64,000 nt of DNA, from NCBI RefSeq assembly GCF_003334335.1, contig NZ_QOWQ01000004.1; one strand, 5' to 3'. The notes under the pieces are model-generated. The model saw only the letters and a program-made list of their open reading frames with translations, had not been told where the DNA came from and made no database searches. Shown piece by piece: positions 7,515 to 56,254 of this stretch (position 1 is its first letter; every line of letters begins with the position of its first letter). The DNA comes from Escherichia coli. Lineage in GTDB: Bacteria > Pseudomonadota > Gammaproteobacteria > Enterobacterales > Enterobacteriaceae. Position numbers and translations under genes: made by a program.

Positions 7515-9531
<2,017 letters not shown>

Positions 9532-9533
9532 GA

Positions 9534-12196
<2,663 letters not shown>

Positions 12197-20079: not shown

Positions 20080-21846
20080 ATGAAAGCAGCGGCGAAAACG
20101 CAGAAACCAAAACGTCAGGAAGAACATGCCAACTTTATCAGTTGGCGTTTTGCGTTGTTATGCGGCTGTATTCTCCTGGCGCTGGCTTTTCTGCTCGGAC
20201 GCGTAGCGTGGTTACAAGTTATCTCCCCGGATATGCTGGTGAAAGAGGGCGACATGCGTTCTCTTCGCGTTCAGCAAGTTTCCACCTCCCGCGGCATGAT
20301 TACTGACCGTTCTGGTCGCCCGTTAGCGGTGAGCGTGCCGGTAAAAGCGATTTGGGCTGACCCGAAAGAAGTGCATGACGCTGGCGGTATCAGCGTCGGT
20401 GACCGCTGGAAGGCGCTGGCTAACGCGCTCAATATTCCGCTGGATCAGCTTTCAGCCCGCATTAACGCCAACCCGAAAGGGCGCTTTATTTATCTGGCGC
20501 GTCAGGTGAACCCTGACATGGCGGACTACATCAAAAAACTGAAACTGCCGGGGATTCATCTGCGTGAAGAGTCTCGCCGTTACTATCCGTCCGGCGAAGT
20601 GACTGCTCACCTCATCGGCTTTACTAACGTCGATAGTCAAGGGATTGAGGGCGTTGAGAAGAGTTTCGATAAATGGCTTACCGGGCAGCCGGGTGAGCGC
20701 ATTGTGCGTAAAGACCGCTATGGTCGCGTAATTGAAGATATTTCTTCTACTGACAGCCAGGCAGCGCACAACCTGGCGCTGAGTATTGATGAACGCCTGC
20801 AGGCGCTGGTTTATCGCGAACTGAACAACGCGGTGGCCTTTAACAAGGCTGAATCTGGTAGCGCCGTGCTGGTGGATGTCAACACCGGTGAAGTGCTGGC
20901 GATGGCTAACAGCCCGTCATACAACCCTAACAATCTGAGCGGCACGCCGAAAGAGGCGATGCGTAACCGTACCATCACCGACGTGTTTGAACCGGGCTCA
21001 ACGGTTAAACCGATGGTGGTAATGACCGCGTTGCAACGTGGCGTGGTGCGGGAAAACTCGGTACTCAATACCATTCCTTATCGAATTAACGGCCACGAAA
21101 TCAAAGACGTGGCACGCTACAGCGAATTAACCCTGACCGGGGTATTACAGAAGTCGAGTAACGTCGGTGTTTCCAAGCTGGCGTTAGCGATGCCGTCCTC
21201 AGCGTTAGTAGATACTTACTCACGTTTTGGACTGGGAAAAGCGACCAATTTGGGGTTGGTCGGAGAACGCAGTGGCTTATATCCTCAAAAACAACGGTGG
21301 TCTGACATAGAGAGGGCCACCTTCTCTTTCGGCTACGGGCTAATGGTAACACCATTACAGTTAGCGCGAGTCTACGCAACTATCGGCAGCTACGGCATTT
21401 ATCGCCCACTGTCGATTACCAAAGTTGACCCCCCGGTTCCCGGTGAACGTGTCTTCCCGGAATCCATTGTCCGCACTGTGGTGCATATGATGGAAAGCGT
21501 GGCGCTACCAGGCGGCGGCGGCGTGAAGGCGGCGATTAAAGGCTATCGTATCGCCATTAAAACCGGTACCGCGAAAAAGGTCGGGCCGGACGGTCGCTAC
21601 ATCAATAAATATATTGCTTATACCGCAGGCGTTGCGCCTGCGAGTCAGCCGCGCTTCGCGCTGGTTGTTGTTATCAACGATCCGCAGGCGGGTAAATACT
21701 ACGGCGGCGCCGTTTCCGCGCCGGTCTTTGGTGCCATCATGGGCGGCGTATTGCGTACCATGAACATCGAGCCGGATGCGCTGACAACGGGCGATAAAAA
21801 TGAATTTGTGATTAATCAAGGCGAGGGGACAGGTGGCAGATCGTAA
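20080..21846 (+). CDS. ftsI: peptidoglycan transpeptidase FtsI (PBP3)
   Basis: 588-aa ORF; PBP motifs STVKP, KSSN, KTGT. Confidence 0.95.
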
Positions 21847-48844: not shown

Positions 48845-50218
48845 TTAATGCGCTTTTACGGCTTTGGCGGTTTTCTCTTTAAACAGATAGCCGATACCTA
48901 ACACGATCAGCCATACCGGGATCAGGTATACCGAAATCGCCATTCCTGGGGTCATCAGCATAATCACCAGTACCGCCGCCATAAACAGCAGGCAGATCCA
49001 GTTACCCAGCGGATAAAGCAGAGCAGGGAAGCGAGTTACCACGCCTTGTTCCTGCTTGGCGCGACGGAATTTCATATGCGCCAGGCTAATCATCGCCCAG
49101 TTGATTACCAGTGCAGATACCACCAGCGCCATTAACAGTCCGAAAGCGGACTCTGGGGCAAGGTAGTTAATCAGTACGCACAACGCCGTTACCAGTGCAG
49201 ACACCAGAATGGTATTTACTGGTACACCACGTTTATCGACAGACGCCAGCGCTTTTGGCGCATTACCCTGTTGTGCCAGACCAAACAGCATACGGCTGTT
49301 GCAATATACGCAGCTGTTGTACACGGAGAGCGCCGCAGTCAGTACCACGATGTTCAGCGCATTCGCCACAAAGGTATCGCCTAACTCGTGGAAGATCAGC
49401 ACAAACGGACTGGTATCGGCGGTAACGCGGGTCCACGGCATCAGTGAGAGCAGAACGGCTAACGAACCAATATAGAAAATCAGGATGCGGTAGATAACCT
49501 GGTTAGTTGCTTTCGGTATACTTTGCTCCGGGTTATCAGCTTCTGCTGCGGTGATCCCCACCAGTTCCAGACCACCGAACGAGAACATGATAATCGCCAT
49601 CATCATCACCAGCCCGGTGAAGCCGTGCGGCAGGAAACCACCCTGATCCCACAGGTTGCTAACGGTCGCCTGCGGGCCGCCGTTGCCACTGAATAGCAGC
49701 CAGCCGCCGAAGATGATCATCGCTACCACCGCGATAACTTTGATAATGGCAAACCAGAACTCCATCTCGCCAAACACTTTAACGTTGGTCAGGTTGATGG
49801 CGTTAATCACCACAAAGAATACGGCGGCAGAAACCCAGGTGGGGATTTCCGGATACCAGAACTGAATGTATTTACCCACGGCAGTCAGCTCAGCCATGGC
49901 AACTAAAACGTACAGTACCCAGTAGTTCCAGCCAGAGGCGAAACCGGCAAAACTGCCCCAGTATTTATAAGCAAAGTGGCTAAAGGAGCCTGCGACAGGT
50001 TCTTCGACCACCATTTCACCCAGCTGACGCATGATCAGAAAGGCGATAAAACCAGCAATGGCGTAACCCAGGATAATCCCTGGCCCTGCGGACTGTATTA
50101 CGGAGGCGCTACCCAGGAATAACCCGGTCCCTATCGCGCCACCCAGCGCGATAAGCTGAATATGGCGGTTTTTAAGGCCGCGCTTTAGCTGCTCGCCGTG
50201 CTGTTGACCTTCCATCAT
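48845..50218 (-). CDS. aroP: aromatic amino acid permease (APC family)
   Basis: 457-aa ORF with 12 TM helices. Confidence 0.9.
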   Translation of the reverse strand: MMEGQQHGEQLKRGLKNRHIQLIALGGAIGTGLFLGSASVIQSAGPGIILGYAIAGFIAFLIMRQLGEMVVEEPVAGSFSHFAYKYWGSFAGFASGWNYWVLYVLVAMAELTAVGKYIQFWYPEIPTWVSAAVFFVVINAINLTNVKVFGEMEFWFAIIKVIAVVAMIIFGGWLLFSGNGGPQATVSNLWDQGGFLPHGFTGLVMMMAIIMFSFGGLELVGITAAEADNPEQSIPKATNQVIYRILIFYIGSLAVLLSLMPWTRVTADTSPFVLIFHELGDTFVANALNIVVLTAALSVYNSCVYCNSRMLFGLAQQGNAPKALASVDKRGVPVNTILVSALVTALCVLINYLAPESAFGLLMALVVSALVINWAMISLAHMKFRRAKQEQGVVTRFPALLYPLGNWICLLFMAAVLVIMLMTPGMAISVYLIPVWLIVLGIGYLFKEKTAKAVKAH

Positions 50219-50710
50219 GAAACCTCGTGCGGTGGTTGTTTTTTTGATCTACGCAGTGATGCGTGTGTAAGTTTGCAATTCCGTTTGTTGTATTAATTTG
50301 TTTACATCAAAGAAGTTTGAATTGTTACAAAAAGACTTCCGTCAGATCAAGAATAATGGTATGCGGCAGCGAATGCACCCGCTTTATGCATGGTTGAAGA
50401 TGAGTTGCTTAAAAAGAAACCGTTTGTAAAGCTCAGCCTCAACCCCTCTCAATATGTAGAATGAATTTAAATTCGTTTTAATTGAATTAAAAATCACAAA
50501 ATTGGTAAGTGAATCGGTTCAATTCGGATTTTTATAGTTTAATAATCGTTAAAAAACTCCTTTCCTACGTAAAGTCTACATTTGTGCATAGTTACAACTT
50601 TGAAACGTTATATATGTCAAGTTGTTAAAATGTGCACAGTTTCATGATTTCAATCAAAACCTGTATGGACATAAGGTGAATACTTTGTTACTTTAGCGTC
50701 ACAGACATGA

Positions 50711-50727
50711 AATTGGTAAGACCAATT
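50711..50727 (+). promoter_or_regulatory. PdhR operator-like palindrome
   Basis: AATTGGTAAGACCAATT about 30 bp upstream of the pdhR start; GntR-type inverted repeat. Confidence 0.55.
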
Positions 50728-50758
50728 GACTTCGGCAAGTGGCTTAAGACAGGAACTC

Positions 50759-51523
50759 ATGGCCTACAGCAAAATCCGCCAACCAAAACTCTCCGATGTG
50801 ATTGAGCAGCAACTGGAGTTTTTGATCCTCGAAGGCACTCTCCGCCCGGGCGAAAAACTCCCACCGGAACGCGAACTGGCAAAACAGTTTGACGTCTCCC
50901 GTCCCTCCTTGCGTGAGGCGATTCAACGTCTCGAAGCGAAGGGCTTGTTGCTTCGTCGCCAGGGTGGCGGCACTTTTGTCCAGAGCAGCCTATGGCAAAG
51001 CTTCAGCGATCCGCTGGTGGAGCTGCTCTCCGACCATCCTGAGTCACAGTATGACTTGCTCGAAACACGACACGCCCTGGAAGGTATCGCCGCTTATTAC
51101 GCCGCGCTGCGTAGTACCGATGAAGACAAGGAACGCATCCGTGAACTCCACCACGCCATAGAGCTGGCGCAGCAGTCTGGCGATCTGGACGCGGAATCAA
51201 ACGCCGTACTCCAGTATCAGATTGCCGTCACCGAAGCGGCCCACAATGTGGTTCTGCTTCATCTGCTAAGGTGTATGGAGCCGATGTTGGCCCAGAATGT
51301 CCGCCAGAACTTCGAATTGCTCTATTCGCGTCGCGAGATGCTGCCGCTGGTGAGTAGTCACCGCACCCGCATATTTGAAGCGATTATGGCCGGTAAGCCG
51401 GAAGAAGCGCGCGAAGCATCGCATCGCCATCTGGCCTTTATCGAAGAAATTTTGCTCGACAGAAGTCGTGAAGAGAGCCGCCGTGAGCGTTCTCTGCGTC
51501 GTCTGGAGCAACGAAAGAATTAG
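50759..51523 (+). CDS. pdhR: pyruvate dehydrogenase complex repressor (GntR family)
   Basis: ORF 50726..51523 trimmed to [18 protein letters not shown]; GntR HTH. Confidence 0.9.
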
Positions 51524-51683: not shown

Positions 51684-54347
51684 ATGTCAGAACGTTTCCC
51701 AAATGACGTGGATCCGATCGAAACTCGCGACTGGCTCCAGGCGATCGAATCGGTCATCCGTGAAGAAGGTGTTGAGCGTGCTCAGTATCTGATCGACCAA
51801 CTGCTTGCTGAAGCCCGCAAAGGCGGTGTAAACGTAGCCGCAGGCACAGGTATCAGCAACTACATCAACACCATCCCCGTTGAAGAACAACCGGAGTATC
51901 CGGGTAATCTGGAACTGGAACGCCGTATTCGTTCAGCTATCCGCTGGAACGCCATCATGACGGTGCTGCGTGCGTCGAAAAAAGACCTCGAACTGGGCGG
52001 CCATATGGCGTCCTTCCAGTCTTCCGCAACCATTTATGATGTGTGCTTTAACCACTTCTTCCGTGCACGCAACGAGCAGGATGGCGGCGACCTGGTTTAC
52101 TTCCAGGGCCACATCTCCCCGGGCGTGTACGCTCGTGCTTTCCTGGAAGGTCGTCTGACTCAGGAGCAGCTGGATAACTTCCGTCAGGAAGTTCACGGCA
52201 ATGGCCTCTCTTCCTATCCGCACCCGAAACTGATGCCGGAATTCTGGCAGTTCCCGACCGTATCTATGGGTCTGGGTCCGATTGGTGCTATTTACCAGGC
52301 TAAATTCCTGAAATATCTGGAACACCGTGGCCTGAAAGATACCTCTAAACAAACCGTTTACGCGTTCCTCGGTGACGGTGAAATGGACGAACCGGAATCC
52401 AAAGGTGCGATCACCATCGCTACCCGTGAAAAACTGGATAACCTGGTCTTCGTTATCAACTGTAACCTGCAGCGTCTTGACGGCCCGGTCACCGGTAACG
52501 GCAAGATCATCAACGAACTGGAAGGCATCTTCGAAGGTGCTGGCTGGAACGTGATCAAAGTGATGTGGGGTAGCCGTTGGGATGAACTGCTGCGTAAGGA
52601 TACCAGCGGTAAACTGATCCAGCTGATGAACGAAACCGTTGACGGCGACTACCAGACCTTCAAATCGAAAGATGGTGCGTACGTTCGTGAACACTTCTTC
52701 GGTAAATATCCTGAAACCGCAGCACTGGTTGCAGACTGGACTGACGAGCAGATCTGGGCACTGAACCGTGGTGGTCACGATCCGAAGAAAATCTACGCTG
52801 CATTCAAGAAAGCGCAGGAAACCAAAGGCAAAGCGACAGTAATCCTTGCTCATACCATTAAAGGTTACGGCATGGGCGACGCGGCTGAAGGTAAAAACAT
52901 CGCGCACCAGGTTAAGAAAATGAACATGGACGGTGTGCGTCATATCCGCGACCGTTTCAATGTGCCGGTGTCTGATGCAGATATCGAAAAACTGCCGTAC
53001 ATCACCTTCCCGGAAGGTTCTGAAGAGCATACCTATCTGCACGCTCAGCGTCAGAAACTGCACGGTTATCTGCCAAGCCGTCAGCCGAACTTCACCGAGA
53101 AGCTTGAGCTGCCGAGCCTGCAAGACTTCGGCGCGCTGTTGGAAGAGCAGAGCAAAGAGATCTCTACCACTATCGCTTTCGTTCGTGCTCTGAACGTGAT
53201 GCTGAAGAACAAGTCGATCAAAGATCGTCTGGTACCGATCATCGCCGACGAAGCGCGTACTTTCGGTATGGAAGGTCTGTTCCGTCAGATTGGTATTTAC
53301 AGCCCGAACGGTCAGCAGTACACCCCGCAGGACCGCGAGCAGGTTGCTTACTATAAAGAAGACGAGAAAGGTCAGATTCTGCAGGAAGGGATCAACGAGC
53401 TGGGCGCAGGTTGTTCCTGGCTGGCAGCGGCGACCTCTTACAGCACCAACAATCTGCCGATGATCCCGTTCTACATCTATTACTCGATGTTCGGCTTCCA
53501 GCGTATTGGCGATCTGTGCTGGGCGGCTGGCGACCAGCAAGCGCGTGGCTTCCTGATCGGCGGTACTTCCGGTCGTACCACCCTGAACGGCGAAGGTCTG
53601 CAGCACGAAGATGGTCACAGCCACATTCAGTCGCTGACTATCCCGAACTGTATCTCTTACGACCCGGCTTACGCTTACGAAGTTGCTGTCATCATGCATG
53701 ACGGTCTGGAGCGTATGTACGGTGAAAAACAAGAGAACGTTTACTACTACATCACTACGCTGAACGAAAACTACCACATGCCGGCAATGCCGGAAGGTGC
53801 TGAGGAAGGTATCCGTAAAGGTATCTACAAACTCGAAACTATTGAAGGTAGCAAAGGTAAAGTTCAGCTGCTCGGCTCCGGTTCTATCCTGCGTCACGTC
53901 CGTGAAGCAGCTGAGATCCTGGCGAAAGATTACGGCGTAGGTTCTGACGTTTATAGCGTGACCTCCTTCACCGAGCTGGCGCGTGATGGTCAGGATTGTG
54001 AACGCTGGAACATGCTGCACCCGCTGGAAACTCCGCGCGTTCCGTATATCGCTCAGGTGATGAACGACGCTCCGGCAGTGGCATCTACCGACTATATGAA
54101 ACTGTTCGCTGAGCAGGTCCGTACTTACGTACCGGCTGACGACTACCGCGTACTGGGTACTGATGGCTTCGGTCGTTCCGACAGCCGTGAGAACCTGCGT
54201 CACCACTTCGAAGTTGATGCTTCTTATGTCGTGGTTGCGGCGCTGGGCGAACTGGCTAAACGTGGCGAAATCGATAAGAAAGTGGTTGCTGACGCAATCG
54301 CCAAATTCAACATCGATGCAGATAAAGTTAACCCGCGTCTGGCGTAA
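51684..54347 (+). CDS. aceE: pyruvate dehydrogenase E1 component
   Basis: 887-aa ORF recognised as AceE. Confidence 0.97.
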
Positions 54348-54361
54348 GAGGTAAAAGAATA

Positions 54362-55310
54362 ATGGCTATCGAAATCAAAGTACCGGACATCGGGGCTGAT
54401 GAAGTTGAAATCACCGAGATCCTGGTCAAAGTGGGCGACAAAGTTGAAGCCGAACAGTCGCTGATCACCGTAGAAGGCGACAAAGCCTCTATGGAAGTTC
54501 CGTCTCCGCAGGCGGGTATCGTTAAAGAGATCAAAGTCTCTGTTGGCGATAAAACCCAGACCGGCGCACTGATTATGATTTTCGATTCCGCCGACGGTGC
54601 AGCAGACGCTGCACCTGCTCAGGCAGAAGAGAAGAAAGAAGCAGCTCCGGCAGCAGCACCAGCGGCTGCGGCGGCAAAAGACGTTAACGTTCCGGATATC
54701 GGCAGCGACGAAGTTGAAGTGACCGAAATCCTGGTGAAAGTTGGCGATAAAGTTGAAGCTGAACAGTCGCTGATCACCGTAGAAGGCGACAAGGCTTCTA
54801 TGGAAGTTCCGGCTCCGTTTGCTGGCACCGTGAAAGAGATCAAAGTGAACGTGGGTGATAAAGTGTCTACCGGCTCGCTGATTATGGTCTTCGAAGTCGC
54901 GGGTGAAGCAGGCGCGGCAGCTCCGGCCGCTAAACAGGAAGCAGCTCCGGCAGCGGCCCCTGCACCAGCGGCTGGCGTGAAAGAAGTTAACGTTCCGGAT
55001 ATCGGCGGTGACGAAGTTGAAGTGACTGAAGTGATGGTGAAAGTGGGCGACAAAGTTGCCGCTGAACAGTCACTGATCACCGTAGAAGGCGACAAAGCTT
55101 CTATGGAAGTTCCGGCGCCGTTTGCAGGCGTCGTGAAGGAACTGAAAGTCAACGTTGGCGATAAAGTGAAAACTGGCTCGCTGATTATGATCTTCGAAGT
55201 TGAAGGCGCAGCGCCTGCGGCAGCTCCTGCGAAACAGGAAGCGGCAGCGCCGGCACCGGCAGCAAAAGCTGAAGCCCCGGCAGCAGCACCAGCTGCGAAA
55301 GCGGAAGGCA
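54362..55310 (+). repeat. threefold tandem coding repeat (lipoyl domains) inside aceF
   Basis: Three copies of about 300 bp each, near-identical at protein level (e.g. [18 protein letters not shown]). Confidence 0.8.
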
Positions 55311-56254
55311 AATCTGAATTTGCTGAAAACGACGCTTATGTTCACGCGACTCCGCTGATCCGCCGTCTGGCACGCGAGTTTGGTGTTAACCTTGCGAAAG
55401 TGAAGGGCACTGGCCGTAAAGGTCGTATCCTGCGCGAAGACGTTCAGGCTTACGTGAAAGAAGCTATCAAACGTGCAGAAGCAGCTCCGGCAGCGACTGG
55501 CGGTGGTATCCCTGGCATGCTGCCGTGGCCGAAGGTGGACTTCAGCAAGTTTGGTGAAATCGAAGAAGTGGAACTGGGCCGCATCCAGAAAATCTCTGGT
55601 GCGAACCTGAGCCGTAACTGGGTAATGATCCCGCATGTTACTCACTTCGACAAAACCGATATCACCGAGTTGGAAGCGTTCCGTAAACAGCAGAACGAAG
55701 AAGCGGCGAAACGTAAGCTGGATGTGAAGATCACCCCGGTTGTCTTCATCATGAAAGCCGTTGCTGCAGCTCTTGAGCAGATGCCTCGCTTCAATAGTTC
55801 GCTGTCGGAAGACGGTCAGCGTCTGACCCTGAAGAAATACATCAACATCGGTGTGGCGGTGGATACCCCGAACGGTCTGGTTGTTCCGGTATTCAAAGAC
55901 GTCAACAAGAAAGGCATCATCGAGCTGTCTCGCGAGCTGATGACTATTTCTAAGAAAGCGCGTGACGGTAAGCTGACTGCGGGCGAAATGCAGGGCGGTT
56001 GCTTCACCATCTCCAGCATCGGCGGCCTGGGTACTACCCACTTCGCGCCGATTGTGAACGCGCCGGAAGTGGCTATCCTCGGCGTTTCCAAGTCCGCGAT
56101 GGAGCCGGTGTGGAATGGTAAAGAGTTCGTGCCGCGTCTGATGCTGCCGATTTCTCTCTCCTTCGACCACCGCGTGATCGACGGTGCTGATGGTGCCCGT
56201 TTCATTACCATCATTAACAACACGCTGTCTGACATTCGCCGTCTGGTGATGTAA
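54362..56254 (+). CDS. aceF: pyruvate dehydrogenase E2 dihydrolipoyllysine acetyltransferase
   Basis: 630-aa ORF; three lipoyl domains ([11 protein letters not shown] x3) with Ala/Pro-rich linkers, E3-binding and catalytic domains. Confidence 0.97.

Follow-up and report, generated by a model that had tools for sequence, protein, structure and literature searches.

A short inverted repeat lies just upstream of pdhR in the stretch of Escherichia coli DNA analysed here (64,000 nucleotides, referred to below as the window), and part of it recurs 211 bp further up in the intergenic region between aroP and pdhR. This raises the question of whether the repeat is the operator through which PdhR, the repressor encoded by the adjoining gene, controls its own operon, and whether the partial copy is a second binding site for the same protein. 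We favour, with a probability of about 0.97, a joint reading in which the palindrome is the pdh operator, bound by PdhR in pyruvate-relieved autoregulation, and the 11-nt upstream copy is a lineage-specific coincidence. Our own analysis provides the sequence, its distance from the start codon, its matrix rank, the extent to which it is conserved and the finding that the cognate gene is present; the transcription start site, the footprint, the gel-shift, ChIP and gSELEX data, and the evidence that PdhR represses in vitro, that pyruvate relieves repression and that the box can be transplanted are taken from the literature.

The palindrome and its place in the pdhR promoter

The window around the palindrome is E. 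coli chromosome, its coordinates being converted to those of MG1655 by adding 71333, and a 582-nt query spanning the aroP-pdhR intergenic region was 100% identical to several complete E. coli genomes, with pdhR annotated at its 3' end. The features on which the argument draws are as follows.

48845-50218, minus strand: aroP (ORF list and annotation)
50510-50521: Cra (FruR)-like box TGAATCGGTTCA, adjoining the partial copy, ~185 bp before the transcription start of pdhR
50666-50694, plus strand: putative core promoter, with -35 TGGACA (50666-50671), a 17-nt spacer and -10 TACTTT (50689-50694)
50759-51523, plus strand: pdhR coding sequence, 254 aa, which opens the pdhR-aceEF-lpd operon and encodes its cognate repressor (RefSeq annotation)
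51684-54347, plus strand: aceE (ORF list and annotation)
54362-56254, plus strand: aceF (ORF list)

The pdhR product matches the NCBIfam equivalog NF007001 (PdhR) over its full length, with 495.7 bits against a cut-off of 330, and the two domains of PdhR are represented by PDB entries 5KVR and 5TPM. The ORF list offered an in-frame TTG at 50726 as the start of pdhR, which was ruled out because RefSeq has the ATG and the protein N-terminus is conserved from this ATG across species. Downstream, aceE and aceF belong to the operon under the pdh operator (operon structure from PMC7660256 and PMC2759082).

Positions 50711-50727 read AATTGGTAAGACCAATT, a perfect 7-3-7 inverted repeat whose arms, AATTGGT and ACCAATT, are fully complementary around the 3-nt spacer AAG. 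The sequence-only reading had placed a PdhR operator-like palindrome at exactly these coordinates and was right that it is an inverted repeat, but it understated the case in calling the repeat near-perfect. Between the end of the palindrome (50727) and the pdhR ATG (50759) there are 31 nt, in agreement with the distance of about 30 bp given in that reading. Palindromy by itself is ordinary, there being 7 perfect 7-3-7 palindromes of any sequence in the window compared with 3.9 in shuffles. What is unusual is the exact match to the PdhR consensus AATTGGTnnnACCAATT, which the site fits at 14 of 14 positions and for which only 1.7e-4 exact matches would be expected per 64 kb. The same site is the sole zero-mismatch match to ATTGGTnnnACCAAT in the 64-kb window, the runners-up carrying 2 mismatches.

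The position of the repeat within the promoter depends on the transcription start site. A simple sigma-70 scan of 50219-50780 called no promoter, having missed that of pdhR because its -10 element matches the consensus at just 3 of 6 positions and is weak by that standard. With the scan blind to this promoter, the start site was therefore taken from the literature: 5'RACE and earlier mapping put the start of pdhRp at an A 58 nt before the ATG (Olvera 2009, PMC2759082), and the same paper likewise terms the recognition elements of the pdhR promoter poor. The promoter string printed there, GTATGGACATAAGGTGAATACTTTGTTACTTTAGCGTCA, ends at window position 50701, which is thus the transcription start on the plus strand; the putative core promoter listed above was placed by its spacing to this mapped start. 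It follows that the palindrome occupies exactly +11 to +27, with its centre at +19 (50719).

These positions tie the palindrome to a site that has been studied directly. The first table of Anzai 2020 (PMC7660256) lists AATTGGTaagACCAATT, with 14/14 matches, at genome position 122052 in the aroP/pdhR spacer, and since 50719 + 71333 = 122052 this is the same site; in that work, where gSELEX was performed with and without pyruvate, the spacer box gave the strongest PdhR peak, at an intensity of 9,234-9,889. The DNase I footprint of Quail & Guest 1995, as cited in PMC10572922, sets the operator as running from +11 to +27 and consisting of AATTGGT, aag and ACCAATT, with which the position derived from the mapped start at 50701 agrees. 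According to the same paper, PdhR represses Ppdh more than 1000-fold in vitro, and its binding centred at +19 prevents effective binding of RNA polymerase. Göhler et al. 2011 obtained an EMSA shift with a 37-mer that is exactly window positions ~50700-50736 and contains just this palindrome, and reported an 11.6-fold enrichment by ChIP-qPCR. More recently, a 2025 preprint describes how a 15-bp box, ATTGGTAAGACCAAT, placed 11 bp after the +1 of a constitutive promoter, confers PdhR-dependent repression. Positions 50711-50727 are, then, the pdh operator itself, already footprinted in 1995, catalogued in regulon databases and engineered into pyruvate biosensors. Being the textbook case of autoregulation in the pyruvate dehydrogenase operon, it is of little value as a discovery. 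The call of a PdhR operator from the sequence alone was right.

Recurrence of the motif and conservation of the operator

We constructed weight matrices from other published PdhR boxes only, in 5-site and 26-site versions, leaving out the pdhR site. With the 5-site matrix, 50711-50727 was the top match in the window, scoring 23.8 of a possible 24.6 bits, compared with 15.2 bits for the next match in the window and 18.6 bits for the best of 50 shuffles. With the 26-site matrix the site scored 21.5 bits, and the scan for PdhR motifs that had been proposed as a check thus places it first in the window. The second match to the 26-site matrix was 21341-21357, inside ftsI, a site that had itself been excluded from the matrix. 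This ftsI site is a perfect 7-3-7 palindrome, TAATGGTAACACCATTA, with 10/14 matches to the PdhR box, and it is the box of a published gSELEX type-D PdhR peak at MG1655 position 92682.

A second proposed check was whether the motif recurs at other promoters regulated by PdhR. Taking the best consensus match in each MG1655 region of 4-5.5 kb around other PdhR targets, we found it in the promoter regions of cyoA (AATTGGTATAACCAATG, 13/14), lldP (AATTGGCCCTACCAATT, 13/14), grcA (AATTGGTAAAACCATTG, 12/14) and ndh (TTTTGGTATGACCAATG, 11/14), in each case as the best match in the region.

Conservation was assessed in pdhR loci taken from one genome per species and selected by a 12-residue pattern in the coding sequence (codons 35-46), a selection which ignores the operator and which covers close PdhR orthologues only. 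At least 120 loci were collected in this way, of which 115 had enough upstream DNA. Among the loci listed, a perfect 12/12 ATTGGTnnnACCAAT lies within 600 nt upstream of pdhR in 112 of 115, and the remaining three carry a single mismatch to it; the other flanking DNA of the listed loci, 859,621 nt in all, contains no perfect ATTGGTnnnACCAAT. The loci listed come from ~37 named genera, which belong to Enterobacterales, Vibrionales and Alteromonadales. With its half-sites perfect in 112 of the 115 species listed, the PdhR box is an extraordinarily conserved motif. Its half-sites are constant whilst the spacer takes eight forms among the listed loci (AAG, ATT, AAT, CAG, CTT, CAT, ATG and CTG), a pattern that would be expected of base-specific contacts made by a dimer and that is unlike that of an RNA stem. 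Two observations on individual loci may be added. In three Photorhabdus species (L007, L038 and L061) the sole perfect box is 164-288 nt away from the ATG on its upstream side, compared with 53 nt in congeners, which suggests an insertion in the leader, and in Kluyvera genomosp. 3 (L100) the pdhR N-terminus is out of frame, possibly through a frameshift or a sequencing error.

Among 34 Enterobacteriaceae in which aroP and pdhR diverge as they do here, the half-sites show 100% identity and stand at a fixed distance from the core promoter, the block from -40 to +1 is 94% identical, and the rest of the aroP-pdhR spacer averages 55-75% identity. The 102-nt stretch of promoter, operator and leader is at least 99% identical, a threshold that permits one mismatch, in 5424 of 5426 complete E. 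coli genomes. The proposal that this operator is placed for the autoregulation of pdhR-aceEF-lpd matches its published identity, and the matrix scan, the recurrence of the motif and its conservation across species all agree with it. The outcome that would have told against the proposal, a failure to match the PdhR motif, did not occur, the fit being 14/14, and none of our observations conflicts with it.

The upstream partial copy and the aroP-pdhR spacer

An exact 11-nt direct repeat, AAATTGGTAAG, occupies 50499-50509 and 50710-50720, 211 bp apart. The sequence-only reading had mentioned a partial second copy near 50501; such a copy does exist, and begins at 50500, but as a PdhR site it does not hold up, being a single half-site with a low score and no conservation. 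It comprises the left half-site (7/7) and the spacer, while the right half, TGAATCG, matches ACCAATT at 1 of 7 positions, such that 50499-50516 lacks one of the two half-sites of a PdhR box. The two matrices gave scores of 3.3 and 1.5 bits at the copy, ranking it 167 and 419 of ~64,000 positions. Of random 562-nt sequences of the same composition, 6-12% contain some exact repeat of 11 nt or longer and 1.5% contain a recurrence of an operator 10-mer, so the repeat is only weakly above chance.

The distribution of the copy points the same way. Ten positions of the copy have a mean identity of 37% in the 34 Enterobacteriaceae and are the least conserved of the region, and the copy occurs only in Escherichia among them, with Salmonella, Enterobacter and Kluyvera carrying unrelated sequence; the E. 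albertii version reads AAGTTGGTAAG. Within E. coli, a 139-nt segment containing the copy is found in 4365 of 5426 genomes and is absent from 1061 (~20%), in which the operator is retained, and in a strain with a T6SS island the copy has diverged to TTGTTGCTTG. We have rejected the copy as a PdhR site on the grounds that it is a half-site only, scores 1.5-3.3 bits, is not universal in E. coli and is not conserved beyond Escherichia, and it should not be annotated as one.

As a side observation, the aroP-pdhR spacer is an insertion point: ~1060 of the 5426 complete E. coli genomes are without its aroP-proximal ~350-400 nt, which are replaced by a type VI secretion tssD/bacteriocin-immunity island (L003) or an IS3 transposase (CFT073, L002). 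The insertion junctions lie at ~50569-50617 and the interruption upstream of these, leaving the pdhR core promoter and operator intact.

Second boxes upstream of pdhR do exist in other bacteria. In the Vibrionaceae among the loci listed, the proximal box is preceded by another PdhR-like box, complete or nearly so, whose distance from it is fixed and characteristic of the genus; a weaker one, with two mismatches, occurs in some Enterobacterales. The spacings between distal and proximal boxes are given below.

Vibrio (L006, L017, L056, L110): 136-139 bp
Photobacterium (L037, L046, L086): 189-190 bp
Enterovibrio/Grimontia (L069, L077, L107): 126-127 bp
Serratia, Dickeya, Brenneria, Chimaeribacter (L024, L041, L052, L092), weaker two-mismatch box: 139-142 bp

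A C-n-G spacer like that of the LldR box is present in many of these distal boxes. The spacings of the Vibrionaceae pairs (115, 126-127, 136-139, 147 and 189-190 bp) lie near multiples of 10.5, but helical phasing was dropped as a claim because the boxes of Serratia, Dickeya, Brenneria and Chimaeribacter, at 139-142 bp, are out of phase. A distal PdhR-like box was sought in the Enterobacteriaceae loci listed and none was found. A relic of one was also sought ~140 bp upstream of the E. coli operator (~50579), where the 17-mer, judged by eye, fits the consensus at 3 of 14 positions only.

The best surviving alternative to coincidence is that the 11-nt copy is an auxiliary PdhR site, or the remnant of a second operator, acting together with the main operator over a distance of 211 bp. 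The exact repeat contains a full half-site, its operator 10-mer would recur by chance in just 1.5% of random sequences, 211 bp corresponds to ~20 helical turns, and the two-box arrangements described above provide a precedent. Set against this are the poor right half and the low score of the whole site, and the mean identity of 37% at the copy contrasts with the conservation of the Cra-like box right beside it. Furthermore, the segment is missing from the 1061 E. coli genomes that nonetheless keep the operator, the distal boxes of other taxa stand 115-190 bp upstream rather than 211, and no listed Enterobacteriaceae locus has a second box with two or fewer mismatches. We therefore consider an auxiliary site improbable. 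A more specific version, in which the Escherichia-specific left-half copy would act as a weak auxiliary half-site that aids looping to the main operator or competes with Cra, is somewhat more doubtful again. Were it true, the sensing of pyruvate and of fructose-phosphate would be coupled at one promoter, and Escherichia would have acquired the copy recently as a regulatory element, in a loose parallel to the paired boxes of Vibrionaceae.

Coincidence remains the preferred reading of the copy. The 12 nt of TGAATCGGTTCA that adjoin it match TGAATCGATTCA at 11 of 12 positions, the only match in the window with at most one mismatch, and the palindromic consensus for Cra is given as gcTGAAtCGaTTCAgc (PMC5888115). 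Of the 34 Enterobacteriaceae, 29 retain the pattern TGAAwCGsTTCA and one more has TGAACCGGTTCA, and both flanks of the element vary. Because these 12 nt are conserved and fit the Cra consensus, whereas the adjoining copy varies, the conserved element beside the partial copy is most likely a Cra box and not a PdhR site, and the resemblance to a PdhR half-site that abuts it is most likely a lineage-specific coincidence. Kim et al. 2018 (PMC5888115) have Cra repressing pdhR-aceEF-lpd but describe its binding as downstream of the promoters; a weaker Cra-like match is present inside the pdhR coding sequence at 50914-50925. A full-text literature search for the string TGAATCGGTTCA returned unrelated primer lists only.

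Three further elements of the spacer deserve mention in their own right. Just upstream of the core promoter, 50619-50660 contains strongly conserved blocks, GTTGTTAAAATGTGCAC ... TTTCATGATTTCAATCAAAA, which hold CRP-like (TGTGCACAGTTTCATG) and FNR-like (ATGATTTCAATCAA) half-site patterns and probably correspond to activator sites described in the literature. On the upstream side of the partial copy and close to it, 50476-50492 is a perfect 7-3-7 palindrome, TTTTAATTGAATTAAAA, which is AT-rich and only moderately conserved in Enterobacteriaceae. Finally, TGTATTAATTTGTTTACA at 50289-50306 resembles a TyrR box (TGTAAA-N6-TTTACA), the TTTACA part being conserved across Enterobacteriaceae, and presumably belongs to the regulation of aroP.

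Other roles for the palindrome, its mechanism and comparison with known systems

Since the palindrome lies within the transcript, at +11 to +27, it could in principle act as RNA, with a 7-bp hairpin in the pdhR 5'UTR controlling translation or mRNA stability, and the minimum-energy fold does pair the 7-bp stem around a 3-nt loop. The fold of the 5'UTR is, however, no better than that of shuffles (-11.8 compared with -11.7 kcal/mol, z = -0.04), and across the 115 listed species the stem is unchanged, with no compensatory changes, while it is the loop, or spacer, that varies. The motif is also found upstream of other promoters and, in Vibrionaceae, as distal copies 126-190 bp further up, and the binding of protein to this DNA is documented. 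We have rejected an RNA hairpin role on the strength of the unremarkable fold and the lack of covariation, and regard it as highly unlikely.

Less credible still is that the palindrome chiefly serves a paralogous regulator of the GntR/FadR type, LldR or GlcC, rather than PdhR. The case for this rests on the close similarity of the LldR box, AAnTGGTCnGACCAnTT, on LldR and GlcC being the families closest to PdhR, and on the lldP operator AATTGGCCCTACCAATT being bound by both LldR and PdhR. At the pdh site, though, it is PdhR itself that footprints, shifts and is recovered by ChIP, and the site is the top PdhR gSELEX peak. Its spacer is AAG and not the C-n-G preferred by LldR, and in 112 of the 115 species listed the box accompanies the pdhR gene. 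The LldR gSELEX paper names PdhR three times only and never as a target row, pdhR not being among the LldR targets that it reports. Some cross-binding of LldR at the pdh operator may occur.

That the palindrome is a functionless chance inverted repeat is excluded, for although 7-3-7 palindromes as a class are frequent (the window has 7, where 3.9 would be expected), an exact match to the consensus should turn up by chance only 1.7e-4 times in a window of this size, the site is invariant at the same position across the ~37 genera of the loci listed, and its binding is published.

With PdhR as the protein acting at this operator, the mechanism with the best support is the following, in which binding, the response to pyruvate and the step that is blocked come from the cited literature. 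A dimer of the GntR/FadR-type PdhR, encoded just downstream, binds the half-sites AATTGGT and ACCAATT, and the site, centred at +19, overlaps the downstream end of the region covered by RNA polymerase, such that productive binding of the polymerase is prevented. The whole pdhR-aceEF-lpd operon is thereby repressed, the synthesis of PdhR itself included, which amounts to negative autoregulation. Binding of pyruvate to PdhR lowers its affinity for DNA and derepresses the operon, and as a consequence the supply of pyruvate dehydrogenase follows the level of pyruvate.

The known system to which this locus corresponds most directly is the pdh operator of K-12, which has the sequence AATTGGTaagACCAATT at MG1655 122044-122060 (centre 122052) and lies at +11 to +27, and whose sequence, position and downstream genes are all identical here. 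The operator shows no difference from that of MG1655, although over the 3.2 kb compared the strain of the window is not base-for-base MG1655.

Within the GntR regulators, the operators recognised by the FadR subfamily have a geometry like that of the 7-3-7 palindrome. The LldR box shares the 7-3-7 palindrome with its TGGT...ACCA core and is likewise recognised by a dimeric winged-helix regulator. LldR and the FadR subfamily differ from PdhR in the C-n-G spacer (in the case of LldR), in an effector that is lactate or acyl-CoA and in their target genes.

The other PdhR boxes of E. coli (cyoA, ndh, grcA/yfiD, lldP and glcD) present the same 17-bp hyphenated palindrome with its GGTnnnACC core, and they too lie in promoter regions. 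They are imperfect, matching at 11-13 of 14 positions and standing 50-228 nt before their start codons; only the pdhR site reaches 14/14, and it is also this site, compared with the other PdhR boxes, that shows the highest gSELEX intensity (PMC7660256).
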